Source of the DNA: Chara braunii | Lineage: Eukaryota; Plantae; Charophyceae | DNA length: 64,000 nt | Direction: 5' to 3' | NCBI GenBank assembly: GCA_003427395.1 | Contig: BFEA01000029.1 | Location: 4,221,975 to 4,285,974 of the forward strand | Shown here: positions 29,801-62,320 of the stretch, one piece after another | Layout of the letters: every line of letters starts with the position of its first letter | How positions within the stretch are numbered: position 1 is the first letter of the stretch | Notes under the pieces: generated by a model | Told to the model about the DNA's origin: nothing | What the model saw: the letters and a program-made list of their open reading frames with translations, nothing else | Databases searched by the model: none | Program-made: the position numbers and the translations under genes

Positions 29801-30102
29801 ATAGCCCGGGCCTGGCCTCCATGCCTACAGGGGTTATTTTTGGCCCCTCAGCAGGCACCGCCCCCGGTACTACTGCATCTGTTAGCAGTTCAGTTTCTGG
29901 TGGAGGGGGGGGGGGCGGGGGGGGTGGGTCCCTTTGTCCTTCAGGGGGCGCGATTCGAAAGAACTCGAAGGTGGGAGTTCATGATCTGTCTCATTGCACC
30001 TCTGTAATATATCATGGACTCCAACCTTCGGTTAATCTTTTTTTTGGCCTTTGATCCAGACCGTTCCATCTTGCCACAAAAAAAAAAAAAAAAAAAAAAA
30101 CT

Positions 30103-32825
30103 TGCGTGAATGGATTCCAAAATTTGACGTGTATGCGATCAGCTCCCTTCAATCAATGTACAACTATACCACTAATGTATTTACGTTTTGTCTTTTTAAT
30201 TCTTATGTTGCGCCCGATGGTTCGTTAATTCGCAAGTTTTTAATTCGTTCACCCTATATTTGTAAATGACTGGAGTGCATGAAATCTGGATGGCTGGTTT
30301 TTGGGGGAAGGACAAATCAAGGATCAATAGGTGTGATTGTGGCTAGGAGGCACGCACCATTCATCCCTTGTCGATCGTTGCACTACATTCGTCCCTTCGG
30401 GGGATCGATATCTCTCAGTCAGGCAGCCCCCCCGGTCAAGAGAGAATTTTCTCTCCCCTTCTTTTAATTCCTCAGTGTTTCACTTGTTCGTCTCGTTTTG
30501 TCTTGTCATCTGCCTCCTCACCTCCCCCTTCTCACGCCTTCAGCTCTTCTTCGCAGCGTCAACTGATGTCGTCCCCCCCTTTGCACGTTTCAACCGGTTC
30601 TTATTCTTGTTGTGTTTTATCTTATCCGTTATCTCCTCACCTCCCCCCTCTCTCCCCTTCGTTCCTTCTTCGCAGCGTGAACTGATGTCATCCACTTCCT
30701 TAGCGGGCTTCACCTCGCGCTTTCTCTTACCGCGTTTTGTCTCACCACTCTCTGTCCGTCTCCTTCCTTTAGGGATCCCGACCTCCCTCACCAGTGTCGA
30801 TTTGTCACCCCGGCTGATGTGCAAGACCATGTCTGATACCTCCTACGTCCCACCTATTTCGCGCATCAGTATCTACCCTATTTCCTCCCTTATCGTCCAC
30901 CTCACCATACTCCCCAACTGTCTCTTGACCCTCTTCCCTCAGGTCGATCTAGGCCCCTCTGTCTAAATCGCCCTCTCCGCCATGCAACACCGTGACCTCT
31001 CATCCCTTTCCTGTGTGCGTCCCCCTTTTCCTGGCTGCTGCGGATGACGCTATCTTCACGCTATCTCCCTTAAGATCATCCTCCCTTAGCGCATATGTGT
31101 CCTCTACGTGTCCATGTCGGCTACCGGCGTCCTCCTGCCTTTCCCGGCTATGGCCACCACCCAGTCAAGGGCAGGGCAGGACAGGATGCCCGAAGGGACG
31201 ACCCGGGCCACTGGTTCGTTGACCAGTGACGGGGCCGCTCCTCGTCGTCACGTCAACGGTAGGGCCTGCCTCTCGTTCATGACGCAACGCTTACGATCTG
31301 GGCAAGCATCCAAGCGTGACACCGAACCTCACGCCCAACGCGACTTCTTGATCGGAGTGAGAGTGGGTTTGAAAGTGCACCAAAAGGGGTGTGCCAAGGA
31401 TTTGGGGCGAGTACTCGCCGAGGGGCAATGGTCAGGCAGTGGAAAGGCAATATACAGTGATAGGGAGGGAACTTTGTTTCAAGGATAGCTATGTCAGGTT
31501 CAGTGATGATTTGACACGTGTACGGGATGGGACAATCGGGGTAATGCGAAGTACATTCTAGGGCCCGTATAATATCCCACTCGCAGAGGCGTTCGGTTCC
31601 TGTGTGATACGGAAACTCTAGGAATTCCACCACCTCGTGTGTAGTTGTCGTACTGAAGAAGCCCGCAAATCAGGGAAGATCGAGGCTCAACCTTAGGTGT
31701 TGTACATGCCGAATGGACGAGATATGCCCCCCGGGTCTCATCAAATGCTCGCTGATCACTTGTTCCGTAGAAAAGCTCATGGCGAAAGGGGAGAGGAAGG
31801 AGGCGAAGATTGAGAAGAGAGCGAAGCACAGTGCTTGAGATCGTCGCTTTCCCACTCAAAAGTGGGAGGCGAGGTAGAAGGTGAGAGGGATGGAGAGGTA
31901 GGTAGGGGACGGAGGTAAGATATGTGGCGGATGATTGGCCTAGCCGATCGGCTTTCTGACACCTCCGGCACAAGCCGCACCGTGTTCACCCCGTTAGGAC
32001 CGAGCTCGACTAAGTGGAATTGCCCGAAGAATCGTGGCGCTAACTTACCCTGGCGAGCACTTTTCCTTACTTGCACTACGTCCCCTAATTTATACTGGGG
32101 TCGGGGCCCAGCATTCCCGTTTTGGGCCTCATAACTTCGAACCTGTCGCCCGTGGGCCATTTCGGTCATCCGCTGTCTTTTCTGGGCCAGCTGAGGAAGG
32201 GTTTTTTCCATCAGTTCCAGATGACGCTTGGCCTTTTCCTTAATCGTTGCCCTGGTAGATCGCCGTCCCAACGTCGTTTCGTCGTTTAGGCTAGGCAGAG
32301 CTAAGCAGGCTAGGTTGTTGGTCTGTACTTGGAATGGGGACGTGGTGTGTCCCCTGATGGACGACCAAGATAGGATCCACTATGTCAGACCAAGGTTTCG
32401 TGTCTCTAACAACGATGTTCCGCCGAAGGGTGGTCTTGATCACCCGGTTGGCATTTTTCACGAGGCCGTTCGATTGGGACATATGAGGGGCGGTGTTCCA
32501 AATGGAGACGTCATGTGTGACCAAACTCCTCAGGACTTCCCCTCAGAATTCTGCTTCATTGTCCTTTAGGATTTCCTTGGTATCCTGATGCATACCAAGG
32601 AAACGGTTGACATACCGCATAATATTCGTCGTCTGTCACGTTTTACACGGATACGCCTCAATCCATTTGGAGAAATGATCTACAAAGACGATAATTTGAA
32701 GGACTGAATATTCACAACTATTAGGACCAGGGGGAACGACAATGTTCATTGTATCCACACTACCTCTTTGGAACGGTCGTTCAACTATCGTCGGCACGAT
32801 GGACCGTGGAGGCTGAATCAGCGCC
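30103..32825 (-). mobile_element. Ty3/gypsy 3' fragment: integrase core, GPY/F motif, downstream extension and candidate 3' LTR (30103-30387)
   Basis: ERPFQRGSVD, IVFVDHFSKWIEAYP, QSNGLVKNANRVIK, KLAPRFFGQF. Purine-rich GAAGGGACGAA precedes TGTAGTG...CACGCA. Confidence 0.85.
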
Positions 32826-35412
32826 TTATGGGCTTCCACAAGACGTTGGCTCGTGTTTGCCACTTATACGTCTGGCCGAAGTCCAGGGACTTCGTGAAAG
32901 CCTACATTCAAGAGTGTCCTACCCGCCCGGAGGTGAACAGTGCGAACCACCTTCCGTATGGGTTACTTCAGCCCCTACCCATACATGAGGGTTGTTGGCA
33001 GTCCGTCTCGATGGATTTCATTGGTTCTCTTCTTCCACCCACTGCGCGTGGTCATGATGCTATCTTGGTCGTCGTCGATCGCTTCACGAAGCTTGCACGC
33101 TTTGTCCCGTGCATTAGCGCTCGTGAGGTCGCTGATATCGTCTTCGACCGAGTCGTGAGAGATCACGGCTTACCTCAGAGCATCATCTCCGATCGTGACC
33201 CGCATTTTACCAGCACATTCTAGCGACGCCTACACAAGGTGTACGGATCCCAGCTCCACTTTTCATCGTCTTACCACCCTCAAACGGATGGTCAGACTAA
33301 GGTCACCAATAAAACTCTCGGTAATATCCTCCGAAAGTTTATTAGGGGTGATCGGCAGTGGGACTTACACTTAGCCCACGTGGAGATTGCGTACAACCAC
33401 GTTGTTTTGCCATCCACAGGGATGTCACCATTTTATTGCGAGTTCGGCTACCACCCTTGCATACCCGTGGATTTCCTACCACCATCGCAGTTACGCCCAG
33501 ACACTCGTTGTCCTGCGCTTGACGACTGGATCGCCCACATAGCGGCGATTATGAGGCGTGCACGCGAGAGTCTAACCGACTCCCAGACTCACATGACCAC
33601 ACGAGCAAACCGATCACGAATGGATCATCCATTCAAAGTCAGTAACGATGTGTTCGTCGATGCACGCCACTTGCAACTCGAAGCGGATACGCTTTGCAAA
33701 TTTCGGCGTCGCTTCTTCGGTCTATGCTGCATCCTTCAGGCCGCCGGTTCTGATACTGCCGCTAGTCCGGTCAACTTCCGTGTGAAGTTACCTAATTACC
33801 TTCGACAGGTTCGCGTACACGATGTTTACCACGTCTCCTTGTTGCGTCCTTATCGCAGACCGGCTGTCGTATCTCGTCGAGTTACCGACAACACCCCTCC
33901 ACGCATGGAGTACCTTGTGCGTTGGAAGGGCTATCCAGATGAGGAGGCTACTTGGGAGCCCCTCGAACACTTACAGCACGCTCGGATGTTGGTGCGTGCA
34001 TATGATCGTGTTGGTCGTGTTGAGACATCTGCTCCTACTCAGCCGACTGACCCTCTTCCGCCTCCTCCGGCTGAGGAGATTGCTAAGGACAAGCCCACTC
34101 CCTCTGAGGCCGTTCTTCAACAGCAAATGAACGCCTCTACATGTCCACAACGCACTCGTCGACGCCCTCGGTGTCTCGATGAATGATACTCTGATCACCT
34201 CCTATCTTCCAACTGACTCACACCTTCAGGTACTTCATCATCAACTTCTTCAGGATGTCAGCGTTTTTCGGCTCTGCTTCGACATCGACTCGACTCCTAC
34301 TTCATCGACGCCATCGACCACCTCGACGACTTCAGTCACCTTCTCAACTTCAACCATCTTATCGGCTTCAGTTACTTTGAACGTCACTTTTTCACGCCAC
34401 CACCTTACCCTGTACATTTTCTTGCATCTGTCGCATGATGGTTCTCACTTAGTTGGGTCTCTTTGAGTTGGGTTCTCCCTTAGTATCGCATAGGCATTGG
34501 GACCGTAGGGTTATCTTGGGTTCTCTGCTCCCAGATGTAGCTTCTTCCTCTCTAGTCAGTGAGTTGTGTGCATGTTTTCCTCACCCACTGCCCTCATCAC
34601 CAGTGTCGGCTACTAGTATTGCATGCCTTCAGTAGGAATATATCCAACCTATTCGAAGTTTCCCTTTTCATTGTCGACCCTACATAGTATCACCCTCTTG
34701 TCGAGCATCACCCGCCTTGATGGTCTATTTGTTAGGGTCATTGGTTTTGTTTCGCTAGCACTCTCTCACCTTGAGCCTGATGACCTATCTCACCATCGTG
34801 TGTAACTGCCCTTAGGAGTTCCGATTCTTAGGCTACATTCAGCCCCTCTGAGACCACCCCACTCTTAGTGGTTCCGCGACATTATATTATATTGTGACAT
34901 ATTGTTTTTTTCCTTTCAGCACTGAGGCCATTGCCTCCAGGACTTTAGGATTGTATCATGCTACATTTCATTTTCTGCTGTTAGTTAGGATGTGTATACC
35001 AGACATTCGTTTTTCATTTGACATTATGTAGCTTAGGCTGCATCGCATGGAGTTTGCTCTGCATCCTAGATTTCTCACATTTCTTTATTGCAGATTTTCG
35101 CTTCTTTTGCGGATAGTGTGTTTATGACTCTTGCGATCCATTACAGGTCTAAGGATTGTGCAGGGGGTCTCTATCTGCCCTGGCCTACAGCCAGGGGCTA
35201 TTCGGGTATTTACTAGTTCGGCCTGTGGGACCAGGCCATCGCCTGACCCCACAGGCCGTGTATTGTTTCAGTCATGCCTGGTACCACTGTCTGTACCAGG
35301 TCAGTCCAGTCCAGTCTAGTCAGTTCGCTGGGGTATACCCCAGTTGCAGTTTGTATTCTGGTTAATTCTTCATTTTGCACTTTTGGAGTACGTGCGTGTT
35401 GAGTCCGCGTCA
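32826..35412 (+). mobile_element. Ty3/gypsy chromovirus 3' fragment: integrase plus chromodomain, 3' UTR and candidate 3' LTR (~35157-35412)
   Basis: GLLQPLPI, WQSVSMDFI, VVVDRFTK, SIISDRDPHFTS, YHPQTDGQT, VHDVYHVSLL and chromodomain YLVRWKGYPDEEATWEP. Premature TAG at 33221. LTR limits TGTG...GTCA are tentative. Confidence 0.92.
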
Positions 35413-37551
35413 GAGTTGCGATGTCCCTTCAAGCTCCATCTCCATCTCGTCCTCCTCAACCCTTCCTCTCGATCCTGACGGACCACCATCCCAGCGGGTC
35501 CATCACAGGGTACGCACGGTTAACGCCCTGCAATCGAACCCGCACGCGAATCGACTCATTGGGGGACTGAGGTCCCAAGCACGACCCGTCGTCGGTCGAC
35601 TAGGACGTATTCCACTCACCACGCGTTACACCATACTAAAAATTAAAATACACACACAAAAATAGAACTCTCCTAGTCCTTTCAGTGTCGGACCCATAAC
35701 CTTTTAACACGGAAATCCGTTAGGTGTCGCCCGCAAGACTCGAGATAAAATTGTGTGGGTGCTAGGCCTTTCTCATATCGACCAGCAATGCACGCATACG
35801 CATGCAGTCGCAACGATGAAGTACTATGTGCTACCAACAATCCTACGACCCTCGATAATCTCGGAGGTCACGTTTCGACACTCAAGTCTCGGCTGACACG
35901 CACCTTGAGGGGTTAATCTCTCGACACTAGACAACCGCCAAGGCGGTTGATCATCACACCCTCTTCTGCACCATGCGGAGAGTGGGTGGTACACAGGTTC
36001 CGGCCTGTGGTGGCAGTCATCTCTCGTGGCTTAGGAGGAAAACTCCATCATCCAGGGCCTGGAGAGAAATTAAGGGGTTTGACTTTGACAGTTGTCACGG
36101 ACTGCAACGTCCAACCATAACAACTCTAAAAAGTAAAGGGTGAAGGGAATCTATTTTTTCTCTCAAGACATAGTTTGTTTAACTCTCGCACACAGTGATA
36201 GCAGACCGTACGGATACTAAATGTATGTGTAAGTGAGAATGTATACATATACATACATGAGGGGTTATGAGATATGTTGCTATCACTTTTCACAACCACT
36301 GCAAGGTTTCCTTCAACCATTATAGTTATGCTAAGCAAGGGTAGTTCAAACAATCAAGTCGAAGCTTGTGTGGCATCAGACGATCACTCTCACAACAATT
36401 GCGTGGCTTGTCCATCCGCATTCACACAATACTCAGACTATCACCAAACTCAATTCAAAGATCTTATAAGCATACCTGCAATCGCACAGAGTTCAAACAA
36501 CAATATGACACGTACTAAGGGAGCCAACTTTATTGCTTTCTGTGACTCACACCCTGCCTTATGCATCCAAACCCCAACAAATTTTCACGATCCCTCAATA
36601 AAGGTACTCAGCCTTTAGAAATGGCCACTTAAAAAAAAAATTGGGTGAAAACCCTAAAAAATATAAAAACCCATAAGAGCCAAGGCCTTAGGTTGAGATG
36701 CAGAAGCAGAGAAATTATGTCGTAAACCGACCTGTTATCAAAAGATAACAGAAACGTAATCCTTCATAGGGTCAGACCGAACAAGTCAAGCCTTCAATCG
36801 AATCCATAGACCTGCATTACAGTTCAAGTCAAAGCGGACCAATACTATGTTTAAGACAAATGGAGGACATGTTCCATGTCGTAGCCTAACTCCTCTAGTA
36901 ATTTTTTCCTTACCTTCTTCCATTGGGTTTCAGACATTACTGAAAATATTGGTAGCATCTCCCTTAGTCAGGGTAGTTTGTCAAATTTTTCCTAGCAGAA
37001 AATAATCTAACTTCTCAAATTCTACAGAATTTCGGCAGCGCTTCCCGTATAAAAAACGTTTTTTCAAAATTTTCAGGTGTTCAAAAACGATTGACTCTTT
37101 CAGATTTGTAAAAATTTCGGAAGCGCTTCCCGTAGGAACAGGAGAATGCCAAGATTTATACAAAGTTGAAAATGCAAAGACAACGTACACATATACTTGA
37201 GACTAACTTCTAACACTTACTTGATAGTTAGAACTGAAGATAGTTTACACGATCCCCCTTTGAAGATGGTATCGTGAGCTATCACTAGTCCCAACTTCCA
37301 GTAAGGTCATTCTTATCATATCCCAATTTTCCCTCCCATTGTCCATTTCAGCTACCTATAACTCCAACACTCAGCGAGCATCTAAAGCGACTAAGCTATC
37401 AAAAATAATACCCTAGAGATAAACCTCAAAAACATACATAGGTAAGTGCAATAACATTTTTCACCAACCCTCAGGTTTCTTTCCATGTCACATAATTCAT
37501 TCAAAAACCCTCGTTATCTCTTTTTTACCCTTCCTTACATAAGACATAGGA

Positions 37552-38287
37552 TCAACCAACCCAACTTATGGATGTGACTGACCTGCCAGTTTATATGACT
37601 AGGCCACACAAACTTATGGTGCTCTAACCTGGTAAAAGAAGTATACGTAAGACATAGGACCAAACCACACCAACTTATGGTGTGACCAGTTTCTGCCTAA
37701 ACGATCGACATAAGGCGTATCACTGGGCCGCACCAACTTATGGTGAGGTTGGTCAGCCTGAACATTCGGCATACACAAAAAGTTGAACCTCCTCAACTTA
37801 TGAGGGGTCAGTCTTAGCCTGAACAACGACAAAAGGCATATGACCAGGACACACTCACTTATGATGTGCCTAGCCAGCCCAAACAACGACATATGGTGTA
37901 GAACTAGACTACCCGACTTATGAGTAGTCCAGCCCAGCCTAGACAAAACCACATGCGTGAATGACCGAACAACCCGCAACTTATGTCTTCGTCAAGCCTT
38001 CTCAATACAACCATGTTCAATGAATAAACATAAGGCATAAAACTCACCACACCAACTTATGGTGTGATTAGCCTCTGCGTGAACAATTGACTTAAGGCGT
38101 ATGATCGGGCCGCACCAACTTATGGTGAGGCCGGTCAGCCTGGACATTTGACATACACGAAATAACTGAGCCACCTCAACTTATGAGGGGTCCAACCTCT
38201 TCCTGAACAAATAACGAAAGGCATATGACCAGGACACACCAACTTATGATGTGTCTGGCCAACCCACAGTACGATGACATATGGTGT
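37552..38287. repeat. Array of ~60-bp units, each a hairpin with ACTTA loop (continues 46641-47525)
   Basis: About 25 CAACTTATG-type cores with complementary but variable arms. A higher-order ~380-bp repeat is present. Confidence 0.9.
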
Positions 38288-40659
38288 TGTCGAGCGCATC
38301 GGTCCGGCACCGCACCAGGGCAGCGCGGGACCCTCCTGGCCGCGTCACGCAGGAGTTGGTTTAAATCCTTCGTCGCAAAATATGCATGTGGAGCTTCCTC
38401 AAGCCGCTCCGGCCGGGTGCGCCAGCCATACCTCTCGCGAGCCCCTACGACAGGATAGGGCCTACGCGAGGCACGACTTACCTACACCTTACGGGAGTTG
38501 TCACCTCCCTTCGGTGGGTGTATCCCCACCGAGCTACCAGTCCACAGTATGAAAGTTAATCAGTTGCGATCGCAGAGGTGGACCAGCCGATGGCGTTTCT
38601 CGTTCGCTGTAGCATAGGGGGTACGCGCGGTAATACGCCTCTATCGGACCCGCGTGCGAATTGGCATCCTGGGGGGCTGAGGTCCCAAGCGCGACCCGTC
38701 GTCGGTCAACTAGGACGCATCCCACACACCACGCGCACACCATTTTACGAACACAAAAATAAAACACGCACACACACACATACAAAACAACACAATACAG
38801 ACAACGTGACAATGCTCCTAGCCCCTCGGTGGCCAGCCCATAACTTTCCAACGTGGAAATCGAAAAGGCGTCGCGCGTGAGACTTAGTATAAAACCGCGC
38901 GGATGCAGGGCTAACTCATATCGACTCGCAATGCAAGCGTACGCAAGCGGTCGCAATGATGGCGTACCATGTAGCACCCATACTTATGCGGTCCTCTTTA
39001 ATCTCGAGGGTCGCATTTGATACTCAATTGTCGGCTGACACGCNNNNNNNNNNNNNNNNNNNNNNNNNNNNNNNNNNNNNNNNNNNNNNNNNNNNNNNNN
39101 NNNNNNNNNNNNNNNNNNNNNNNNNNNNNNNNNNNNNNNNNNNNNNNNNNNNNNNNNNNNNNNGTCGCATTTGATACTCAATTGTCGGCTGACACGCGCC
39201 TTGAGGCCCTGGGGGTCGCAATGATGGCGTACCATGTAGCACCCATACTTATGCGGTCGTCTTTAATTTATCGACGCTGGACAACCGCCAAGCGCGGTTG
39301 AAGACAACACACCCTCTTCTGCACTTTGTGCAGAGCGGGTGGTACACAGGTCCATACATGTGGTGGCAGTCGTTTTTTGCGGCCCTGGGGGTAAGTCCTA
39401 CCCCAGGCCTGCAAAAGTCAAGGGGTTTGACTTTGACAGTTGCCACGGACTACAACTTCCAACTATAAATCGTAAAAAGCACAAATAGACCGAAGCCCCC
39501 CCCCCCTTTATCCCAAAAAGAAAACAAAGTCTTGGGATACTCTTCCCTTTTCACGTAGTGTCAGCGACTTGTAGTAATCCTAAGTATTCGCGCGTATGTG
39601 CGGGCCCCTTTTGATCCCATAACTTTTAAACGTCAGGGCGGCGAATCATCGCGCGCGGGATTTTAATATAAAGTCGTGCAGCTGCGGGTCAGTCTCATAC
39701 CAACCAACGATGCCAACCATACGTGGTAGTCGCGGCTCTGGCCTCGTGATATTGAATGGCTGAAGGAATATATCGTAAGGGGTTACCCCACACGATATTG
39801 AACGGCTGAAGGACATGTCGTTCGGCCTTCGCGACATTTCCGCCTTCAGGGTGGGGTGCCTCGATGGGCAAAGCGAATAGGTCATGCGTGAGGGGAAACC
39901 CCTCCACTGCAGAGCCTAGGGCTTGGGATGTCCTGAACAAGGACCTTGAATCCCGGCCCAGGACCAACGTCCGACTAAGAAAATCTTCAAGAAGCAAAGC
40001 AAAATAAAAGGAAGGGTCTTCCTTGGGCCTCTCAGTCTTGGGTCCCTCACAACCATACGTATATATGTGATCGCAGGCAACGCAATCCAGTATCTGATTC
40101 ATAGCACATACCTGCAAATCACATCAACGAGTCAATCAACAGCCCACTCACTACACGAAGTCAACCCCAACCATCTTCAACACTCATACCCCTCGCTTTA
40201 GCCATGCAAGCCCCAACCTCCTGTTTAACCGATCTTAATTAAATACTCGGTACCTTTGTTAAATGACCATTCAATAAAAGTCTGGGTGAAACCTTAATGA
40301 AACAATGAAATTCACCAGGGCTACAGTTTCTTAGGTTGAGTGTGGAGGGTGAGTTGGAATTGAGTCGTAAACCGACGAATCATCAACCGACATGTTATCA
40401 GTGATAACAGATGATGATCCTCAAGGGATTAAGATGAATCTAGTCCGGATCTTGAATCAAACGATCAGGAGGGTCTGTAACACATGACAGGTCAATGCCC
40501 CAGGCTGAATGTTATAAGTTCATGAAGAACAGTCTCCATATCGTGATCTTATCCAAGTCATTCTTAGTTAACTGTATATAAGCCTACCTCTAAGCAGTAT
40601 GGTAAAATCTCCCCTGATCAGAGTGGACTATCAGAATCGCCTCCTGTCAAAAATATAAT

Positions 40660-41230
40660 CGATCTCCTTTAAACTAAGAAAATTTCGGCAGCGCTTCCCG
40701 TAGGAAAAGTGTCTTTCCATAATTTATATAAGTCTAAATGTGAAAGCAAAGATAAACTTTTAATTCTGGAAAGTCCAATTTTGTCAAACTCCCTGAATTA
40801 GTAAAAATTTGGGCAGCACTCCCTTTAGAAAGGGAGACTTTCCTGATTTACACTAAGTCAGATATGAACTCAAAAGACGACTTGAGTTCAACTTAGACAA
40901 TATTTAAGCAACTCCTTAGTTTTGCAGCACTCCCTTTAGAAAAGTGTTTTTCAAAATTTATACAAGGCTAAGTCCAGAAATTGAAAGTAATTTTGACTTA
41001 TCAAAGTCCAATTTTGTCCAACTCCCTGAATTAGCAAAAATTTGGGCAGCACTCCCTTTAGAAAAGGAGACTTTCCAGATTTTTACTAATTCAGATATAA
41101 GAAAAGACAAAGTCGAACTTTTGACAAGTCAAAATTTAACTAACTCCTTGGATTTGTAAAAATTTCGGCAGTGCTTCCCGTAGGAAAAGTAGCTTGCTAA
41201 GATTTATACAAGTCAAAAGATCCCAGAAAA
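40660..41230. repeat. ~120-bp tandem repeat (AAAATTT(C/G)GGCAGC(G/A)CT(T/C)CC..TAG.AAA); two copies also at 37010-37170
   Basis: Five cores at ~40680, 40805, 40920, 41040 and 41160. Confidence 0.85.
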
Positions 41231-41439
41231 TGCAAGAATTGATCTAAGTATAAAAAAAGTTACTACAAAAAATGCAGGAATTGACACTAACTTCTATGGC
41301 TCTAGCACGTGGCGAGCAACTAATGCAAGCTAGACCACAAAGGTAAGTACTCTCACCAGCCCCAAATCAACTCGAACAAACAATAGTTCATGGTCTTTCA
41401 ATGATTTAACCCTTATATCCAGCTTACATAAGGCATAGG

Positions 41440-42380
41440 TCAGGCCGCCTGAAGTTACAGAGCGCGCCCAACTTAGCCAGGCCTAGAGTCAGAATACCTA
41501 AACTTATAGAGCGTTCTGACTTGGCCAAGTATATACGAACAGAGGGCACAACTACTTTTGTCTTCTTTGGGCACATGACTAGACCACTCTAGTTGCCCTG
41601 AACTGTTTAAAGTATCCAAGTTATATATACTTGTCTTCACCTATCTCTTCTAAGGCTGCATATGACTGAACTTAACTTAAGCTCAGTCTGCCCCAGTTTA
41701 CCACCAGTTTTATTCTTAGTTATACTCTCTTCAATTTGTGGTATGGCTATTGTCAGACCACCTAAACTTATAGAACAGTCTGATTAGCTCGTTCTTAGAT
41801 AGAATAGTAGTGAAGTATAGCCAAATTATAACCATTGGCTTCCAGCATGTGCGAGGCTTTGAGCCAGACCCCCTGAATTTACAGAAGGGTCTAGCGCTCT
41901 GCCAAGTTTTTTTCTCTCTGAACCATCATGTATGTGGCATCGAGTCAGACCCCCTGAACTTACAGAAGGATCTGCCCCTTTGCCAAGGTTATTTCTTCAA
42001 AATAAAGAGCAGGAAGGGACTGAGCCACCTGAACTTACAGAACAGCTCGGCCTCCTCGTTCAGAAACAAAAAAAAACTTAGGAAAACCCAAAAAAACAAA
42101 GCAACTCAAGACACCAAAACTTATTGAGCGCCCAGAGTCCCTAAAAATCAAGCGCAATCAAACCCTTTACAGGTCAGAGCAGTCAGGCCACCTGAACTTA
42201 CAGAGCAGCCCGACCCTCCATACAAGCCATAGCACTGGGTATCCCCAAACTTATGGGGACATCCTAGCCTCCAGAGCAATCAAACCCCCTAAACTTATAG
42301 AAGGGTCTGCTGCTCCATGCAACCCAAAGTAAACAAAGCACTGGGTCTCCCCAAACTTATGGGGACCTCCCAGCCTTAAT
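41440..42380. repeat. Homologous AACTTA-loop hairpin array in the nested element
   Basis: About 11 cores, e.g. CCCCTG-AACTTA-CAGAAGG, TCCCCA-AACTTA-TGGGGA, CCCTA-AACTTA-TAGAAGGG. Confidence 0.85.
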
Positions 42381-45300
42381 GACCCAGCCAACCACCAAGC
42401 AGAACAACCCACCATCCTGCCTTTCCCCCCCCCAGATGCAGTTCTTTCGAACAGTCACACAGTCAATAAAGTTGAAATTGAAACTTGAACAGACATTCCT
42501 TTACTTAGTCTTGTTCAGTGTCCTGAATAGTCAAACCAAAAATAGAGTAGGGTTGCACATCATATATTCAGTCAGCGATGCAATGGGTAATGCAGATAGG
42601 GGTTATATCTTGGGTGTATAGAGGGAAAAGCGAATGGTTACCTGTCAGCTCCCTGCCTCCAGAGCCTCGCCTAGGCTCAGGCAAAGCTCCCGCAATCGGT
42701 GGGTGGACTCCCCACAGAGTCTTGATGCGGTCCTCCGGGTTGCAATCCCGCCTGCCGCCTTCCCCTCAGAACAAGACCAGACTTAGAGTAAGAAGGATAG
42801 ACGAAGAAGGATAGAGAAATAGGATAGAGGAAGAAGGCTTGAAACTCTCAGATACAAGAGGGGTGCTCTCAGACTCACTGGAGAGGGCCTTGTAATCTTT
42901 AGCTCCTGAGGGCCCCGCAATGGCGGCCAAATAGTATCAGCTTGGCCAATTTCTGAATTGAGTCTGCCGAAATCAACCCCTTGACGAGCTCCCGAACACC
43001 CCAATGACCCCTTATTTGTCTGGTCCGATCATCTCCCCTCGTCTCAGCCCCCCTTTCCTCGTCTCAACACCTCCCCTCTGCCTGTTTGCGGTCACACAGT
43101 AGTTTACAACAGCCCATATACGCAGCGGCAGTGCTCAATGGCAGCCCCCCTGCTGCTTGTAGCCGCATGCCGTAATTCGCAGTACTTGCCATTACTGTTG
43201 TGGCAGAACTTGGTTGAGGCAACAATCGAACGCACAACGGTCAACAATTCACAATCCAATCTCGGTGACCACCGATCAAACCAACAGAAAAGATGGCCAC
43301 TCCTTGTCCTCCGTTACAGTCTACAGTCCGAGGCCCAGCTGCAATCTCTGATTTCCAGCCATAGTGCTGGCTTTCACAGCGGCATTGCCCGAAATCCCAG
43401 CATCAACAGTCATTCGTCGCAGCTGTGTACAGGCACCCAGTGAGAACACTCACCTTTGACCACAACAGCAGTGCCCCAGTTTCAAACAACAGCGGTTGGT
43501 AGCCAGGCTTTGAGCACGGTAAGACTTGAACCGCCGTCTTAGCAATCCTTGTGGCTGCAGCACCAGGCTAACAGGCAAGCCCCTCCACTCGTCAGGCTGT
43601 GTGACTCATTAGCTAGCTGGTAAGCCTTCCGCCCCGCAACCAAGTAGTACCGCAGCAATCCCCACCAACAGGATTATACCTGGTTTAAAGTTGGGAACGG
43701 TACCAACAGTTCTCTCTCAACGGGTGCAGCAGTGTTAGTCACTAGCCAACGAGCACAGCCGTAGCATGCAGTGGCGGGCAATGACTTACCCTCCTTCGCT
43801 GCTCGATAAGGCGGCGCAAAACCACCCCCATTCACAGTCGGTTCTCCTAGCACGTCCTACCCCCCCCCGTAAGCATGCCTTGGCTCAGTCAGGTAAGTAC
43901 AGTCTGCCCATTATCACTTCGCCTGGATCTGAAGGTAGCATATGGCCAGGCACATACTTCCTCAAGGAATCCAACCATCCATAAGTGGAGGGAGGTATCA
44001 GGGCGCTGGAACAGCCAGCTGCAGGCGGGACTTACGATGACATACCTCGAGGAAGAAATCACCCTCACCCTACCTCGCAGCTAGCCTCACGCTACTTTGT
44101 TTTGGGGCAGAGTACAAAATTTGAATGAACCTGTCCCCTAAGAACGACCAGCTTCACCCCCCCCCAACGATTAACCATTCCTCCGGCGCAGTTTATTTAT
44201 TAACTTCCTCAAAAGTTAATCACTGAACTCTAAATCTAACACCGCCACTGCTCGTCCCGAAACCTCTACTTTGACTCTTTCCCCGCTCGATTCTATCAGG
44301 AATTAAGTGGTAACTCGTTTCTTCTACCTCGCTGCTCTTCCCTCCGCCATAGCCTATTGCGCACGTAGTTTTTTTTTCTTTCTCTCTTTTTCTACCAACA
44401 CTCTATTAATTCTGACTCCGAAATCGAAGTCGCCTGGCCGGAAAAACCCTATCTACAGCTCTCCCTGCCCCGCGCTCACCAGGAAATGGGCGAAATTCAA
44501 CAATTTCCCTCCACCATAACCCTGCCACCTCTGAATGAATCTAGCACTATTCCCCGTCCCGGTTCACTCGGCTTTTTAACACTTCGCTCCCCCTCACGCT
44601 CACCTCGTTCTCCTCTGCCCTCGCCTGCATCCTGCCTGTCTCCCCGCCGTCGCTTCGCTATTCCCCTGCGCTGCCTCCCGCTACCCCGCTGTAGCCGCTC
44701 TCGGCACCATGCTGTCTCCTGCCCGCATGCACCCTGGCGCGGAACCTGGCCAGGTTCCTTCCTTTCTTCCCTGCCCGACAGCTACTCCGACCGGTCCGCC
44801 TTCCCTTCCGCTACACCACCCGTCATCTCCAATCCCTCTCTCTCTCTCTTAGTACTCAGTAGTAAGGCGCAACCTTCTCTCTCTCCCCCCCCGTTGCGCC
44901 CCACCGTAGAGTGCACCTCGACGTGACCTCAGGCCAGGTCCGTTCCCGCTCTCGCACCTTCCTTCCTTTGTCAACATTGAGCCGACAGCATTTGCGGCAG
45001 CCCGGTACTCTCACCCACTCCGCTATCCGCCTTGCCTGTCCATCACCTACGGCTCACAGCCGCGTGCCCCGCTACCTACCTCGCCTACTACCGCTAACGC
45101 TCGCTGGTTTGCACCTCACTGAGTGATAGCTCGCCGACTCACAGAGCATGAGCACCCAAAAGAAACTGGCGGGAGTAGTGAAGTCAGTTACAAAAACAAA
45201 AACGAGGGAGTCACCCTCATTTTATTCACACTCCCTTGCCTCGCAAAACTTAGCCAGTCCCTACTATAGTGTTCCTGATTTTTCCCGAAAGACTTCTATC

Positions 45301-45503
45301 GCGGCAATGCCCCCGGTACCGAGGCCACACGGGCTTAGTGTCGGGCCCAGCACTGGAGAGCCTCCGTGATCCCCCCTGTCCCGGGCCGCTTCTCCACTTT
45401 CGTTATGGCGCCCGCGCTTAGCCCCTTCTAGCCTTTCTCAGCGCTTGGCCCCCTTTTGCTTCTGGGTTCATTCCCGGAATTACCAATGCCGGTCTGGCGT
45501 GAT

Positions 45504-45557
45504 GGCCACGCTAATCCTATCCGTATCGTTCCAATTTTAACAGATGTCCCGAAGTAC
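45504..45557 (-). pseudogene. U6: U6 5'-half relic inside the 8.3-kb element
   Basis: GTACTTCGGGACATCTGTTAAAATTGGAACGATACGGATAGGATTAGCGTGGCC. Confidence 0.88.
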
Positions 45558-45615
45558 TTTTCCTAACGGTTGGCACCTCAAGGCGCTTCCAAAGGCCATC
45601 CGGCCTTTTCCTTTT

Positions 45616-45713
45616 CCTCCCCGCCTTACGAGCGCCATCCTCGTACGGCGGCCAAGCTGGCCTCGCTAATCTTCTCTATACCGCTCCAATTTTCAACGGG
45701 TGTCCCGAAGGAC
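45616..45713 (-). pseudogene. U6: Divergent near full-length U6 relic inside the 8.3-kb element
   Basis: GTCCTTCGGGACACCCGTTGAAAATTGGAGCGGTATAGAGAAGATTAGCGAGGCC...CGAGGATGGCGC. Degraded TSD-like flanks AAAGGCCATCCGGCC / AAACGCCCCGGCC. Confidence 0.85.
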
Positions 45714-48456
45714 AAACGCCCCGGCCACGCCCACAACAACTCGCCACGACGGTTTTTACCCATCAGGTTCGACCACAGTCCCGTATTTCCAACGATTCGC
45801 GGGCGTACCCATGGTGTCTTCGCGCCCACCTACGGACGCGATAAATAATAGTAACTAAATAAAATTGGAAATAATATATATATATATATAGAAACAGCGA
45901 GCGGTAGCCGAGTAGGGACCACGACACCCCTTTCAGCCTGCCCGTCAGCCCCACGCTCGGCCCCGTGGCAGCAAAAGGCGAGGGGGATAGTCCCATAGGC
46001 CCATCAACCCCTCGAGCCTTTTCGCCACGCTCCTCCGCTCCCTTGCTGCATACCGTTAGCCTCGATCCTTGCGTCTGCTGCGTACCAGTCCGGTGCTATA
46101 ACCTATAGGGTTGAGCCCAAACCTGGTACCAGCAGGCCTGACTCACCTTATAAAGAGGTAGCGCACGGCCCTTGGGGCCAAGGAAACGCCCTATGCCACT
46201 TCCCGGCTCACACTTGCACAAAGGACTACCCAAAACTCACGTCGGACTACCGACCTCGCCGCGGCTACCCGTCCTTAGCCAAATCCATCAGGTCCCATCA
46301 GCGTAAGTCCACACCGGCCCCCCGAACCGTCTACCGCATCCCACGTGACCAGGGAAAAACGCACTCATAGGTTAATCAGTTTGATCAAACAGAAATGACA
46401 TACGTCGTCCGAAATCCACGCCACGCCTGCTATTCGTAATCAAACCAAGGAGAAAAACCGCGCGCGCCTCAAACTTGCGCGCCCGCACTCCCTCTAATCT
46501 GACCACGCACTTAGTCATTGTAGCCTTCAGACATCGCTGCGTCTCGCGCAGCACATTTGAAACTTTAGACTTAGCTTATTTTCTGTCATTTGCAAAAACC
46601 AGGGCGGATACCCTTATAAGGGTATTCGCACCGACAGCGTAGAACTAGGCTACTCAACTTATGAGTAGTCTAGCCCGCCTAAACAAGCAACAAGCGCGAG
46701 TGACCGAACAACCTGCAACTTATGCGTTCGCTCAACCTCTGCAACACAACTACATTCAATAAGTAGAGTCACAATCCTTTTTTGTCTTCAGACGAGTGGC
46801 CAAGTCACCTCAACTCATGAGGATCCCCACCCAAACATCGGTTATGTTTAGAAAAAAAAGAAATAGCCAAACTTTATATTATCTCTCTGCCCTTTGTATT
46901 ATCATTGGCATAAAACCAACTACCCAACTTATGGATGAGTCAGCCTGCCAAAAGTTACCACTCAATTTTATAATTTGAATCTTATTTCTCCTCTGCTTTA
47001 TATGTTACCGACATATATGGCTAGATCTCCCAACTTATGACATTCAGCCTGCCAATGATATACATAGTATATAGTTGTATCAGGTTGTTTACTCGGGTTC
47101 CACTTATGTTCACGGCTCATGACTTGGTCACACCTACTTATGGTGTGACTAGCCTACCAAAACAAGTAAACATAAGGCATACGACTTATGGTGTGGTCAA
47201 TTTCTGCCTAAACAATCGACATAAGGTGTATGACCGGGCCACACCAACTTATGGTAAGGTTGGTCAGCCTGAACATTTGGCATACACAAATAACTAAACC
47301 ACCTCAACTTATGAGGGGTTCATCCTTTACCCGAACAAACGACGAAAGGCATATAACTATAACACACCAACTTATGGTGTGGCTAGTCAGCCCATACAAT
47401 GACATATAGCGTAAAACTAGGTTACTCAACTTATGAGTAGTCTAGCCCCGCTTAAACAAGCAACAGGTGCATGTGACCGAACAACCCGCAACTTATGCGT
47501 TCGCCCAGCCTCCTCAACACAACAACAAATAAGATCACATTCTCATTCTGTCTTAATTCAATCAAATAATATGAATTTCTCATACACACTTGTTAATTTA
47601 ACATTTTCATATCATGTCCTGAAATGAAAACAATCAAAAGTAATAATTTTCTTAATCATACTTGCAAACACACAATAGCAAAAGGGTAATATAGTTTAGG
47701 GGATGGGATCACACATGTAAAACGAGCATTATACTTGAGTGTTCCCTGCCTCCAAAACCCCACCTGGGCTCCGGCAGAGCTCCTGCAATCGGTGGGTGGA
47801 CCTCCCATAAGGTCTTGTTGTGGTCCTACGGGTTGCAATCCCGCATGCCACCTTCCTGTCGTAACTTCAGACTGGACTTAGAGTAAGAAGGGAAGAAGAA
47901 GGAGTTTCATACGCGCGAGATACAAGAGAGGGACATACTCAACTCGCAGGAGAGGGCCTTGCGATCTTCATTCGCCTGAGGGGCCCGTAATGGCGGCCAA
48001 GTCGGTTGAAACCGAAGTCAACGGACTGCAAATGCCATAGCTGTAACCCCCAAATAATTGAGGTCTAGGTGCACGGTCAACCCCATACTAAATCCAGCGG
48101 CAAGCTCATTAAGGATACCGCATCTGTATCAGTTCCAGCGGATTCAGCAATAACATAGATCTTTGAGAATCAGCGATATTCTGCCATTGAGAATAGCAGC
48201 ACCGCTGTGTAGTACAATAGTGCACTTTGTCGGATGAAGTAGGAGAAGATCGCCAATCTCTAATTCAGCTGATCATGGACCCAGCAACACCCTCGATCAC
48301 TTAACAGTGCACGGTCACCCTCAAGCTTCTCGCAGCAAATTGTCGTTGAACTGTCCGTATTCGCACAAGTGGGGCCTTGCTTCTCGGTTTCTCCGACCTC
48401 GTGAGTCTTAAGCACTCTCAGGCTGTTACGCGGGTCTTCTCCTTATCAGGTAAGCA

Positions 48457-48550
<94 letters not shown>

Positions 48551-49928
48551 GGACGTCTGCTCTGCATCCAATACTGGGCAAGACGAAGAATAAATCTTTC
48601 GCGAAAACATGGAAAGATACACTTGTTTAAGAAAGCGACTACGAATACAGCCTGACTACGACCATCGTGCAACCTCTTATCAAGTACGCAATTTAACGAC
48701 GAATCTTTCTCATAATCATGGAGGGATACGTCGGTATAGGGAAGGCGGCCACAAGTATGAGGATCACGGGGGACATCACAGTGCGCTGCTAACGACGATC
48801 GTCAGGGTGAGGATGACCATGAACAATATTCGGATGGACACAAATGCTACGCCCATAACAACTCAAATGACCACCTGGTCAACGTGCGTGCGAATAGGCT
48901 CCGCAAAGATCGTGAAAACGAGCGATGACAAATATTGGATGGCAATCATCACAAACATGATCACTACCACCGAGAGTGAGGCCGGAATTTTGATGAGCGG
49001 CACAACCATGTGGATGACGAAGGCGATCACGTAAGGAGCCAATTACTACAACCCGTTCCTCCTTCCTCTACCCCTCCTCTCTCTCTACGCTTGTTATGGC
49101 ACCTTGTTCATGAATGCTCCTGGTCGTTGGCTTGGCCAAGTCCAGTTATTGCCTGAGGGAGGAAGGTTATGAGCGAGAGGAACACGGGAAGACAGATAAA
49201 GAACTTCGATCTGGCCGAACGCAAGTGTGGGCTCCACTAACTTTTTCTACGACATCAGATTGAATCTTTCGTTGGATCGTGGTCAGATACGCTTGCCTTT
49301 CAACGATGCACAAAGAGGATAGAGGGAGACTACTTTCATCGCCAAGATGAGCAAACGCACCGGTCAAAAGGTAAGTCTCCAACCCCAAGGCTGGACTTAT
49401 GCTACTTCCATCGATACGATGAACAAAAATTGAATGAACCTTCCGCTTGAACACGGATGGGTTCACCCCCTTTCTACACCCTCTTCTCCTTCACGTAGTT
49501 CCCATACCCTATTTTGTCAAAACTACTGCGCTTTCTTCGAATTTACCTCACCATCGTATTCGCCCGCCACCAAAACCTCTATTTAGCACCTTTCGTTGCC
49601 AATTTTCATCAGGGAACGACTAAGTTACGTGACGTTTTACTCCCGCTTCGTCGTCCTCCTCATCACCTTCGCGCGCCACTTCTCTCTCTAACCCCAAATC
49701 TACTAACTTACTACTAGAACTAACGTCGATTTTGGATTCACCTACCCTAAAAACCCTTGCCTACCATTCTTCTCCCTCTTATCTTCACCGAGACGCGAGC
49801 GAGACATACACCTTCAACCTCCGTCATAGCCATCCCTCCTCCGCCGCTGCTTCCATCCCCCTTTCATATGCACTCGGCACACTTCGCATTGGGATCCGTG
49901 GTCGTACTGCCGCCTTGGCTTCCCCTCC

Positions 49929-50246
49929 GTGCCAGAATCATGCGCTCATCTAAGCACCACAATGTAAATTGATAACGCAGGGAGCAGGGCAGTGGCTTCG
50001 AGATCGCTAAGGAGTGCGTAACAATTCGATCAAACCGAAAGCCAATAGCGCTGCAACATGCTACCTATATACGGTCGCCGTAGCTGCCCAGGCGTCGTAA
50101 CGGGTAAGAGGATGCTGGATGACTGTGGTTCCTGCAGCAGTCCCAGGCGAGGCGGGCCCTAGTGTTGATCTTAATGGTAGTACCAAAAATCTAAAAGAAA
50201 CCCTTTGAAAACCGTCGTGGAAAAGGGTTCCATATGACCGGTCACT
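49929..50246 (+). pseudogene. Degenerate eukaryotic LSU (25S/28S) rRNA fragment inside the outer element
   Basis: Collinear conserved LSU motifs: CGCTCATC..CACCACAA, CGCTAAGGAGTGCGTAACAA, ACCTATA..CGG.CG, GATCTT..TGGTAGTA.CAAA.AT, CTTTGAA, GTGGAAAAGGGTTCCAT.TGA. Confidence 0.85.
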
Positions 50247-52116
50247 AGAGCGGCCTCAGTCCTGGTGCGCTTGTCCCACCACACCCAGGCACAGTTCATC
50301 ATCTTCAGGGTCCCAACCAGCAAGCTCGCACTCAAACCTCTCTTTGTAGAGCCGCGGGCGTACCAACTGTACCAGGCCCGTTGACCCTACTGCCCGTTCT
50401 CGATAACGGTAAAATAAATAAATAGCATAAAAATAAAATAATAGATAAAGGAGATGGGAAGTGCGATAAGAGGAGGAGGACCGTCGCAACCCCATCCTCT
50501 GTCCTGCCCATCAGGCCCGCAATCTGACTCCCCGACAAAACTAAGGGGGATAGTCCCACAGTACCCTCAACCCCTCAGTTTCTTCACTAGACACTTCTCC
50601 GCTCCTTCGATGCGGGTTGCTAGCTTCGATCCCTGGATCTGCAAGTTGGAAGTACCTGCTCTACTCCTACGCCTGTTGGACAGCGCTAATAGCCACATTT
50701 TGTCGAATTGGCCTTTTCTATGGCTCTCACGCACTCAGCCCTGCTGTATGAAGGGGTCAACTTTACTCGTGGCTGCCGTGCATGCGACACAATCGTGCTG
50801 CTACAAAAACTTCACCCTTCTCAGTAGGCTACCTTCCCGAAAAGACCATACTTTAACCCATCTAGTGTCTCGAAAACTTGGCTCCCATTTATACCACACC
50901 TTACTCACGTCGATCATTACAAAGTTGTTGGCAGTTGCTAGCGCTGGCCAAAACACGGTCAATGCAGGGACTCACGTACTTCACATAGTGTTGACTCTAA
51001 TGTTGTCTTAGGTAAGTCAAAAGTTTCAATGACTAAACCTTACGTTTAGTCATCGAACGCCAGTCTCGGCACACACGCCCGCAGTGCATGCGCGATACTT
51101 ATCCAACATCGTATTCTTTTATAACTTGCGATAACAGACACAAATGTCGCTCACACGACTATTTCATATTACATAATCTCGGACATTCACCTAGAACCCA
51201 CGCGTGTCCTCGAAGTGCACGCCCACACACTCTCTAATCAGATCAAATGTGTATGTTATTCCCAACACCTAAGAGTTGGTCATGGTTATGCAGAAATGGT
51301 ACATTCTCTCAAATATCGTCAAAAACACATCTTCTGTGAGATGTAAAAATGTGCATAAATACCCTTGCAAGGGTATTAGGGCCGACACCGATTGATAGTC
51401 TATATTATATTATTTTAACCCTCAAAACGTTAGAATCAACTATCAGACTACTTGTATTGACATTTCTCTTAATTTATTATGCATCTCATTTTTTTCCACA
51501 CCCCATATTAACAAAAAACACCATGCTAATTTATTTGTTTTTCGTTATACCTCATTTTTGTAATTAGTTTTTTACCTTAACATTTTTGGTCATTAATCAG
51601 GATATAAGAGTAAACATTTAATAAATTTGAAAATACTACAAATCGAACTTCTAACTATACAACAGGATGTCCGCCGAAGGTGTGGCGGGGGCCAAGAGGG
51701 GGTGCAAAAAAAAAAAAACATTACCTACAAAAACAAAAGTTGTGAGGTCAAAACGGTTGAATTGAATAGTCATCGACCATTGATAAGGTGAGTTGAGGTA
51801 CAATCCAACAAAGTAAAAAACAATTGAGATCAAAAAGGCGGGAAGGGGGGGAAACACAACCGACAATGGGCTTTGTTCCCTTACTCACCAATGTTTGTAT
51901 CTGCCCATGTTCTAGCGGGTAATTAATTATCACATACTGCCTTAAACCACTAGTACCTTTGCCGCTTCATAAATGAGGGAAAACGCTTGTTCCCAAAAAA
52001 TTCAGAGACCCAGCCTGACGACGGTTGTCATTGATAAATCTAATTGACGACCGTTATTTCATTTCGGCCTCTTGAAAGGTCAGAGGCTCGTTATTTTCCG
52101 AATGACAAAGGTATTA

Positions 52117-54750: not shown

Positions 54751-55248
54751 AAACAAACACTCATAGAAGTACATGGTGTAGGGGCGCCGCGAACGAATGG
54801 GTTAGCGCTCTAGCGCTCCGTTCCGCGTAGGTGTCGGCCGGCTACTGAGTGACAGCGCTCAATGAAATTTTCTGGGTAGGCCGTGTCGCTGCTTCCTCGT
54901 CCACCCCGCCATCGATGACGGGGCACGAGGGCATGGTCTCACTCACACATCGTAAGTTCCGCTTGTCGGTAACACCATCGCCTGAGAAGTAACCCTTACC
55001 GCAGTAACTTAGTTTTACCTTTCCAAGAGTAAAAGTGTCGACTTTTCGTGAACGCTGCTGTAAGTTTAGATTACCTAATTAGTCGGGATATAGTAGGGCG
55101 CAAGGGGAAGAAAGGCAGTAATGGAAGAAGAAGGAGCTGGAGGAGGGGGGAGACCCCCCCTACAACAAACTTCTGGGTTATGTAGGACAGGGTCAAACAA
55201 TCCATTGGACAATGCTACGATGAGGGTGTATTTTCAGTCGAACCAAAC

Positions 55249-58091: not shown

Positions 58092-58187
58092 TGGCTCACA
58101 CACCAGTGGAGGTTCACAGGAGATGGGCATCAGAGGGAGACATTAATTCTTCCCGCATTCAATCTGAAGCGGAAGCAGTTGCTCTCC

Positions 58188-61100: not shown

Positions 61101-62320
61101 AACCTCTCTTTGATAATCCGTCCATCCTTGATGAAAGAAGGCAACCATTTTCTGTCGGGACGGAGGTAGCATCGTTTGGATTGGCGTGGATCCGAAAGGG
61201 AATCAGCCAAGTTCGGGATCTATGGTCTACTTTGTTGGGCACTTGACGCCCCTTCGCAGAAGTAAAAGCTCAGCTGCAGAATCTGAAAAGGGTAGAGCAG
61301 AACTGAGAGAGACTGTTGGCAGCGATCCCGCTTACTTGGAGACAAAAGCTGGGTCCGGAGGGTATTGACCCGGTGGGTACTTGGTACCTCCCGCCCACCC
61401 AGTCAGCTAGAGAGATAGTGTGGAAAGTCCTGGACATCACACAAAGCGGTTTCAGAAAGGTCCAGGTTTGGGAGGTCGAAGATCGTCCCTCCTCAAAGCT
61501 GATCCAGATTGGGGAACAGGAAGTGAAGAGCTGGTCGAACCCCCCACAAATACGGGTTGTGGAGAGCTCAGTCAAGAGGAGGGATGAAACGGTGTATAAC
61601 TAGGTTGAAAGAGCACCTCTCAGAGATCTGATGATAGACCCTGTGGCTTGGAAATGGTCGGGAGGGACTTCAGGGCCCATGGACTTGATTTCCTTCTGAG
61701 TGAGAGAATCATACCGTAGAGCAGAGAGGCCTAGATCGCCTGCGTTGGTGGCTATTGCCAGATGGAGTGCATTCCTGACTGACGACTTACTGGGACAAGA
61801 GGCAAGGTTCAGGAAGTTGTGGAGGACATTGATAGAACTCCCCAACCCCAAACAGGCAACTGTACTTTGACTTCTATCACTGTTGGTAACACCGTCGTCA
61901 ATCTGGCTGGTAAGCAGGGGTATGGAGGTCAATATGGGTTGCACTCGCTGCACCTGGCCATTTGAGTCCACCAAACATGTGTGGTGGGACTGCCCAACTT
62001 CGAAGAGAGTCTGGCAATGGTGGGAAACTCACTGGAATTAGATGGGAGGAAGAGACATAGAATGGAACGAAAAGTGGGTGCTGCTGGGGTGTTCCAGAGG
62101 AGAGGACTGGGCTGAGAGGATGGGCGTACGTGGCACAAGTGGCCAGAGCGGTGATCTGCTCCGCAATATGGGCAGACAGGAACAGATCTCGCTTTGAAGG
62201 ATGACCGTTTTCGGTTGTGGAGATGAAGGCTTCAATCAAAAAAGGACTGAGGTAGGCTATCTGGGTCGATTGGAAAAGGAAGGTGAAACAAGGGAGAGAC
62301 TCCCATCAAGCAAGATGGCG
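58188..62320 (+). pseudogene. LINE ORF2 (APE-RT-zf-RVT), frameshifted
   Basis: ATWNVRGL, MQETK, IGDWN, RRLDYFL, QGAFVQGRSI, LDLKKAYDKV, LRQGCPLAPLLF, AIANDL (mutated ADD) and CTRCTWPFESTKHVWWDC. Confidence 0.95.

Follow-up and report, generated by a model that had tools for sequence, protein, structure and literature searches.

Conserved-loop hairpin arrays downstream of a probable splice donor in two diverged families of putative giant long terminal repeats of Chara braunii

A 64,000-nucleotide stretch of the genome of the alga Chara braunii (GenBank assembly GCA_003427395.1, contig BFEA01000029.1, positions 4,221,975 to 4,285,974 of the forward strand; hereafter the window, numbered from its first letter) contains two diverged repeat elements, one inserted into the other, each of which carries a tandem array of hairpins with variable stems and a nearly constant loop. 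The arrays are real RNA structure under selection. Their RNA is most likely the minus strand, with the loop UAAGU(U), and in both elements, as well as in a third copy, the array follows a conserved block and a likely 5′ splice donor. We tentatively suggest that the arrays may be multivalent docking sites that mark unspliced genomic RNA for recognition by Gag or an accessory protein encoded by the element, a reading that we place somewhat short of probable.

The outer array, split by the inner element, comprises 12 units in its 3′ segment (37537..38287, minus strand; units at 37564–38242) and 12 in its continuation past the insertion (46637..47530, minus; units at 46657–47491), which makes 24, and the inner array (41420..42390, minus) holds 11, at 41453–42355. 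Loops of the outer family have 5 nt (UAAGU, with A-U and C-G as closing pairs), whereas those of the inner family have 6 (UAAGUU) and are followed by 3 bp, a bulge, and a G-U-rich stem; the bulge is a single 5′ U three pairs below the loop in 8 of the 11 units. ACTTA sites without a hairpin (38090 and 47102 in the outer array) or without the unit structure (41471, 41670, 41675, and 42076 in the inner array, together with the one-mismatch sites 41619 and 41714) were excluded. An earlier note on this DNA had described about 25 outer and 11 inner units with changing but complementary arms; its unit positions and all its arm pairs were confirmed in the sequence, with an outer count of 24. The spacing of about 60 bp that it gave applies only within repeated blocks, the units being 95–114 nt apart midway along the outer array and 44–111 nt apart in the inner one, which also has one gap of 264 nt. 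A third copy, L001, found via the conserved block described below, belongs to the outer family (79–82% identical by blastn, colinear); its array is uninterrupted (L001 2360–3620), and 17 units were counted in it. The order of monomer types is kept between L001 and the window, whereas unit number differs (17 versus 24).

The three array segments contain 13, 12, and 13 copies of ACTTA, the plus-strand form of the loop; 500 dinucleotide shuffles of each segment averaged 1.05, 1.9, and 1.75 and never exceeded 4, 6, and 7. Unit-centered segments folded on the minus strand gave a mean z of −2.3 (outer) and −3.1 (inner), against −0.6 at 50 ACTTA sites elsewhere in the window and −0.1 after a 30-nt shift; z was below −2 for 15/24 outer and 10/11 inner units, but for only 5/50 of the other ACTTA sites and 1/35 shifted segments. 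Apart from singletons, the outer units fall into about six monomer types that recur as copies, so that independent events are far fewer than 24. A 9-nt core, CATAAGTTG, is nearly invariant across the outer family. The arrays had been described as conserved between the two elements, and this holds for their loop word, their architecture, and where they lie in the element; the arrays themselves give no blastn alignment with each other.

Sites recognized by a protein typically combine an unchanging loop with a stem that varies but stays paired, and both halves of this signature could be quantified. Among the inner units, 87% of 154 cells were paired, with double changes in 10 of 14 pairs, and none of 500 shuffles scored as high for paired cells and covariation. 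RNAalifold found no consensus in the full-length outer alignment owing to scattered gaps, and a gapless 19-column core was therefore used, in which 75.7% of 140 cells were paired, with double changes in 5 of 7 pairs. For both families, the cell-based covariation measures exceeded all 500 shuffles and all slid partners. Stem position 3 of the outer units (40 units, including those of L001) illustrates the pattern, with C-G in 16, U-A in 9, U-G in 7, G-C in 4, and A-U in 2, that is, all four Watson–Crick types. For the 40 outer units, which do not include the truncated unit 47184, a tree was built from non-core columns; on it, joint changes led to a Watson–Crick pair in 7/10 partner versus 7/31 non-partner cases (p=0.017), the number of joint changes itself being similar between partners and non-partners. 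Compensatory stem changes thus stand above the phylogenetic background, with modest support from few independent events, which is also how the covariation anticipated in the earlier note fared once repeat phylogeny was taken into account.

The loops are better kept than the sequence around them. Monomers average only 52% alike, yet the loop is kept at 99%; within outer monomer types, loop differences number 0/75, versus about 0.21 in the flanks, and between L001 and the window the loop differs at 2/82 positions and unpaired positions at 81/589 (6/104 for the loop with a looser unit list, p=0.024). Pairing is retained in 44 of 68 changed pairs, a figure biased by taking the structure from L001, and the pairs kept in both copies include 22 G-U versus 5 A-C. 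RNA reads from other copies restore both broken inner loops (41454 and 41878), and among the 40 variants listed of 544, 16 lie inside the inner array and none breaks an intact loop. The idea, put forward in the earlier note, that selection acts on a single-stranded structure is therefore supported by covariation, by loops better kept than unpaired flanks, by the fixed bulged U, and by the G-U columns.

Transcript evidence comes from three RNA runs of one study (X5, X6, and X7; X5 and X7 are oligo-dT), for which read direction was assumed by the usual convention; most reads are 80–95% alike to the window and so derive from other copies. Over the inner array (41460–42395), first mates favor the plus strand over the minus strand in X5 (sums 19.1 versus 2.2) and X7 (28.1 versus 3.0), and they do so again over the block at 42604–42811 in X5 and X7 (20.9/0.4, 35.7/1.5; 55.4/0.6, 88.6/0.2), which by that convention means minus-strand RNA. 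A canonical donor at the 42641 boundary exists on the minus strand alone. Two inner columns pair on the minus strand in 22/22 cells, 12 of them via G-U. A model of the inner units ranks four outer units, on the minus strand, next after its training set (E 0.1–1.2, weak), and it also ranks outer-family units on the plus strand of L001. C(UNCG)G hairpins within the elements number 5 on the minus strand and 0 on the plus strand, three of the five coming from one repeat. Plus-strand folds are weaker in 31/38 segments, and in 21/35 after composition control. Reads in two of three runs, the conserved donor, and the G-U pairs together make the minus strand most likely, with the loop UAAGU(U) and not ACUUA; the earlier note, which read the loop as ACTTA, had the wrong strand. 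A very abundant match near 50300 could not be used for calibrating read direction, as it has an open frame on both strands: a piece of about 50 nt of the outer element (50290–50342) matches a very abundant stranded transcript, and 16,696 X6 reads share one loose end there.

Upstream of the inner array, in transcript sense, lies a conserved and strongly transcribed block without an ATG (42642..42930, minus), likely a non-coding first exon, followed by the likely used donor CAG/GTAACC (42640..42641, minus), which is marked by a fall in depth and by loose read ends. The outer element carries a copy of the block (47735..48000, minus) with the donor CAA/GTATAA at 47734–47733, and L001 has CAG/GTATAA, so that the donor is present in all three copies. 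The array starts about 250 nt downstream of the donor in the inner element and about 200 nt in the outer one, and the order of exon block, donor, array, and a second hairpin repeat is the same in three copies and two families. Depth over the exon block exceeds that over the array about 13-fold in X5, 23-fold in X7, and 5-fold in X6, versus 3.4-fold in DNA contigs. Loose read ends at 42650 continue as CAG/GT in X6 (104 reads) and as CAG without GT in X7 (16) and X5 (4). The exon block contains no ATG and the inner array 13. We infer that splicing joins this donor to acceptors beyond the 64-kb stretch, and the arrays likely sit in the part that splicing removes.

Translation of the exon block was considered and rejected, its frame having a stop in the outer copy and in L001; a protein search with it returned one Chara model only, three other matches being repeat proteins judged to be chance, and another frame returned none. 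In that Chara braunii gene model, the block (88% over 26 residues) lies downstream of reverse transcriptase (RT)–RNase H in the same sense, which weakly supports the polarity assigned to the element. The second hairpin repeat has five units in the inner element (40650..41220, minus) and two more in the outer one (36998–37170); its hairpins are longer, and their loops are C(UACG)G or UAAA. In each of the three copies it follows downstream of the main array (L001 4000–4140, plus), and it has the highest DNA depth of the element. An identical minus-strand word, CCTATGYCTTATGTAAG, closes the arrays of both families (37536–37552 and 41423–41439) and includes TGTAA. TGTAA is a poly(A) signal in green algae; none of the listed RNA-read ends is a poly(A) loose end.

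Both elements appear to be solo long terminal repeats (LTRs) of about 8 kb. The inner one (38288..46636, minus; 8.35 kb) lies inside the outer hairpin array, begins and ends with TGTCG...CGACA, that is, TG...CA ends with a short terminal inverted repeat, and is flanked by a short target-site duplication, GTGT on the left (38284..38287) and GCGT on the right (46637–46640), with one C-to-T difference at a CpG; the site fits NCGN, as does the consensus of 156 contigs behind 46636, which starts ACGC. The outer element consists of a 3′ part (35508..38287, minus), whose last ~300 nt are missing, with the end of a chromodomain-type element in their place, and a 5′ part (46637..51387, minus), which has the terminus ...CCGACA and, behind its end at 51387, the flank CCGA (NCGN). 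With the left end lost, a duplication can be read for the inner element only, and the missing ~300 nt were not found within the window. The two elements are colinear, with blocks of 63–79% identity. Pfam searches with 9 open frames inside both elements found no family, the one match being low-complexity and below the cutoff. DNA depth over the elements is 10^4–10^5, against about 8–10 in unique stretches; both families are high-copy, although summed contig depth is not copy number. The putative solo LTRs likely belong to a Ty3/gypsy retrotransposon, and unusually long Ty3/gypsy families have reportedly been noted in the Chara genome paper.

In the mechanism we propose, the minus-strand LTR transcript would start with the non-coding exon block, followed by the donor and the array. 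Joining of the donor to distant acceptors would remove the array together with many upstream AUGs, and the spliced RNA would be translated, whereas unspliced RNA, which keeps the array, would be packaged. The partner of the array would be encoded by the element (Gag or an accessory protein), and the many weak hairpin sites would act jointly. Three kinds of precedent may be cited. Retroviral packaging sites are lost on splicing (PMC13736810), a rule that an array located after the donor fits; the plant retrotransposons BARE and EVD/copia separate spliced, translated RNA from unspliced, packaged RNA (PMC3735527, PMC5580714); and in packaging-signal-mediated assembly many shared-loop hairpins act together (PMC6281560). 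By analogy, the array may work like a leader packaging signal or a ribonucleoprotein-assembly signal. A more specific version, in which giant algal retrotransposons carry a natural MS2-type tethering array in an intron of their own LTR, seems to us possible but doubtful.

Several observations weigh against this proposal. In retroviruses, packaging sites are few, as opposed to 11–24, and are located downstream of the primer-binding site. None of the three copies is linked to a complete element, a primer-binding site, or a gag gene, and the evidence for LTR identity and for a 5′ position consists of the ends, the target site, and one gene model; in L001, another repeat interrupts the element before its end, so that a primer-binding site is not visible. 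Part of the fall in depth from exon to array reflects divergence among copies, since X6 falls too. The consensus of the X7 loose ends reaches an agreement of only 0.53, and no splice joint was seen in the RNA reads within 39900–43000. X6 shows no strand preference over the inner array (185.6 versus 205.5) and has a 2–4-fold plus-strand excess over 39900–41560 that ends near a donor-like AG/GTAAGT beside the array (41343..41348, plus; outer copy 37442–37447; AG/GTGAGC in L001); this may point to antisense transcription from the end of the LTR. Whole-array folds display the loops about equally on both strands. The comparison of G-U with A-C frequencies suggested in the earlier note for assigning the strand leans toward minus overall (70:17 in the arms), although the excess over the composition control (313:126) falls short of significance (p=0.087). 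Event-counting measures were not significant in shuffles (29, 52, 290, and 304 of 500), and stem positions vary between copies as unpaired ones do (82/559 versus 81/589).

Much of the same evidence would be expected if a host protein or small nuclear ribonucleoprotein bound the array, whether for nuclear export in the manner of a constitutive transport element (CTE), for suppression of the nearby donor, or for U1 protection from early polyadenylation, the leading alternative, although one we consider rather unlikely. It shares the position and strand evidence with the packaging proposal, and a loop word common to two families with non-aligning stems is what a conserved host partner would produce. 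CTE stem-loops bind TAP/NXF1 (PMC3856414), and U1 protects unspliced EVD RNA (PMC5580714) and acts likewise in the foamy-virus 5′ LTR (PMC3694450). The identity of ACTTAC in the inner array with the U1 5′ sequence had been remarked on in the earlier note and considered perhaps fortuitous: on the minus strand, the loop does match positions +2 to +6 of a 5′ splice site, but GUAAGU occurs in only 5/35 window units and 1/17 L001 units. The remaining 30 and 16 have A in place of the G needed for U1 pairing, and the units therefore do not qualify as pseudo-5′ splice sites or U1 decoys; a 5-nt loop on a long stem would, moreover, be a poor site for a U1 helix. Complementary ACUUAC sites downstream of both window arrays are not kept in L001, and pairing of the loop with such a site ~110 nt downstream was rejected for that reason. 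U1 pairing is thus an unlikely selected feature of the loop.

Other explanations require less of the array, or a different strand or molecule. One or a few hairpins might be functional and the rest products of tandem amplification, with stems matched by fold-back template switching and not by selection. The makeup of the outer array, a higher-order repeat of about six types with 24 units in the window and 17 in L001, is in keeping with this, as are stem positions no better conserved than their flanks and the common occurrence of long LTRs and tandem arrays in non-chromoviruses (PMC6317226); the idea is nonetheless improbable, given the contrast between divergent monomers and kept loops, the preserved order of types, the excess of G-U over A-C among pairs kept in both copies, and a fixed bulge that would not survive fold-back repair. 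Action of the units in DNA, as spaced palindromes or cruciforms for a transcription or chromatin factor, would account for the nearly invariant core, the regular ~60 bp spacing, and folding on both strands, and the LTRs of Sireviruses contain multiple palindromes (PMC4728375). We find it quite improbable, however: a duplex-binding protein has no need for arms that vary yet stay paired, the G-U columns pair on one strand only, and the arrays come after the transcribed exon block, unlike the palindromes of Sireviruses, which are found ahead of the TATA box. Finally, the hairpins might be small-RNA substrates or belong to an antisense transcript with the loop AACUUA. The plus-strand excess in X6 up to about 41560, the antisense donor-like site in all three copies, and the match of Sirevirus hairpins to small interfering RNAs (siRNAs; PMC4728375) speak for this very improbable reading; bulged stems of 14–22 bp would be short for dicing, a constant loop would be needless, and plus-strand folding is the weaker, if less clearly so once composition is controlled.

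Compared with known systems, the arrays resemble retroviral leader packaging signals in that the hairpins follow a donor and hence would occur in unspliced RNA only, murine leukemia virus having two same-loop hairpins; here, 11–24 tandem units lie in a terminal repeat of ~8 kb, with a loop, UAAGU(U), that is not self-complementary. With packaging-signal-mediated assembly and the MS2 operator they share many stem-loops with variable stems and a common loop motif, and the single 5′ bulge near the loop of the inner units is also MS2-like, although loop and bulge letters differ; packaging signals of RNA viruses are dispersed and degenerate, whereas the Chara arrays are clustered, regular, and part of a retrotransposon. 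The nearest plant case is the Sirevirus palindrome region (PMC4728375), where hairpin repeats in a plant LTR likewise keep their structure while the sequence varies; it belongs to Ty1/copia, lies upstream of the TATA box, has a perfect palindrome consensus without a constant loop, and is linked to siRNAs. The Chara arrays do not lie upstream of a transcription start as that region does, being downstream of the transcribed block and donor. In BARE and EVD/copia, the intron is at the gag–pol junction, and the portions available describe no hairpin array (PMC3735527, PMC5580714). Phygy has, according to Neumann et al. (PMC6317226), the NCGN target preference with a short duplication that the Chara elements also display, but Phygy elements are short and an 8-kb terminal repeat does not fit. 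Looser parallels exist as well. CsrB/RsmZ sponge RNAs and the twin trans-activation response (TAR) hairpins of HIV-2 use several same-loop hairpins to bind many copies of one protein; systems, loops, and hosts differ, and the parallel is one of analogy only.

A literature search, with thin coverage of subscription papers and with supplements outside it, found no description of such an array. No Rfam family matches any array of the window (E up to 5–10) or that of L001 (E up to 1), neither element has a match to the hammerhead core expected of a retrozyme, and a two-unit array pattern had 0 matches in metagenome contigs. A three-unit loop pattern matched 66 stretches of viral contigs, but the arms were paired at only 69/704 sites and the one stretch inspected was a protein-coding repeat; these were set aside as unrelated.

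How LTR retrotransposons of the plant lineage select genomic RNA for packaging is poorly known, and a clustered constant-loop array in two diverged high-copy families offers a ready bait, with clean loop, stem, and copy-number mutants. Were the tethering version correct, 11–24 hairpins with one loop word across families would recruit many copies of one protein, either made by the element or a host splicing or export factor reading the splice-site-like loop, and would divert the RNA away from splicing and translation and toward export and packaging; RNA and protein would then form a new pair, and the array a dose-tunable sorting signal undescribed for plant retroelements. If one protein binds the array, the pair could become a new RNA-tagging tool, and if the partner is a host factor, it would point to the export or splicing route of elements that occupy a large part of this genome.

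The variable 5′ part of the inner element, in a portion that most other copies lack, contains two tandem pieces derived from U6 small nuclear RNA (snRNA) (45456–45557 and 45602–45714, minus), in the sense of the element and 89% and 84% identical over ~54 nt to a U6 retrocopy at 18826. The ACAGAGA box is altered in both, and neither the outer element nor L001 contains such pieces; they might have been captured as passengers or might represent part of an internal promoter as in Cassandra. Near-identical sequence on either side of a 120-N gap in the inner element (38949–39043 and 39164–39267) suggests a local assembly overlap.

The window as a whole is eukaryotic and packed with long interspersed nuclear elements (LINEs), a chromodomain integrase, and snRNA retrocopies. 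A truncated Ty3/gypsy piece with integrase and chromodomain (32708–35507, plus) abuts the outer element at 35507/35508, and an end related to it recurs, reversed, at 63865–63999. Two decayed LINEs with endonuclease matches lie at about 22500–30000 (minus) and 55186–62300 (plus), the right one also having an RT match. The snRNA retrocopies at 18826–18926 (plus), 8127–8231 (minus), and 7228–7354 (minus) are U6 copies and one U2-like copy, and one U6 retrocopy carries poly(A) and a flanking direct repeat. A dispersed short repeat with type III hammerhead matches just below the Rfam cutoff occurs at 15552–15607 (minus) and in L001 at 6959–7014 (minus).

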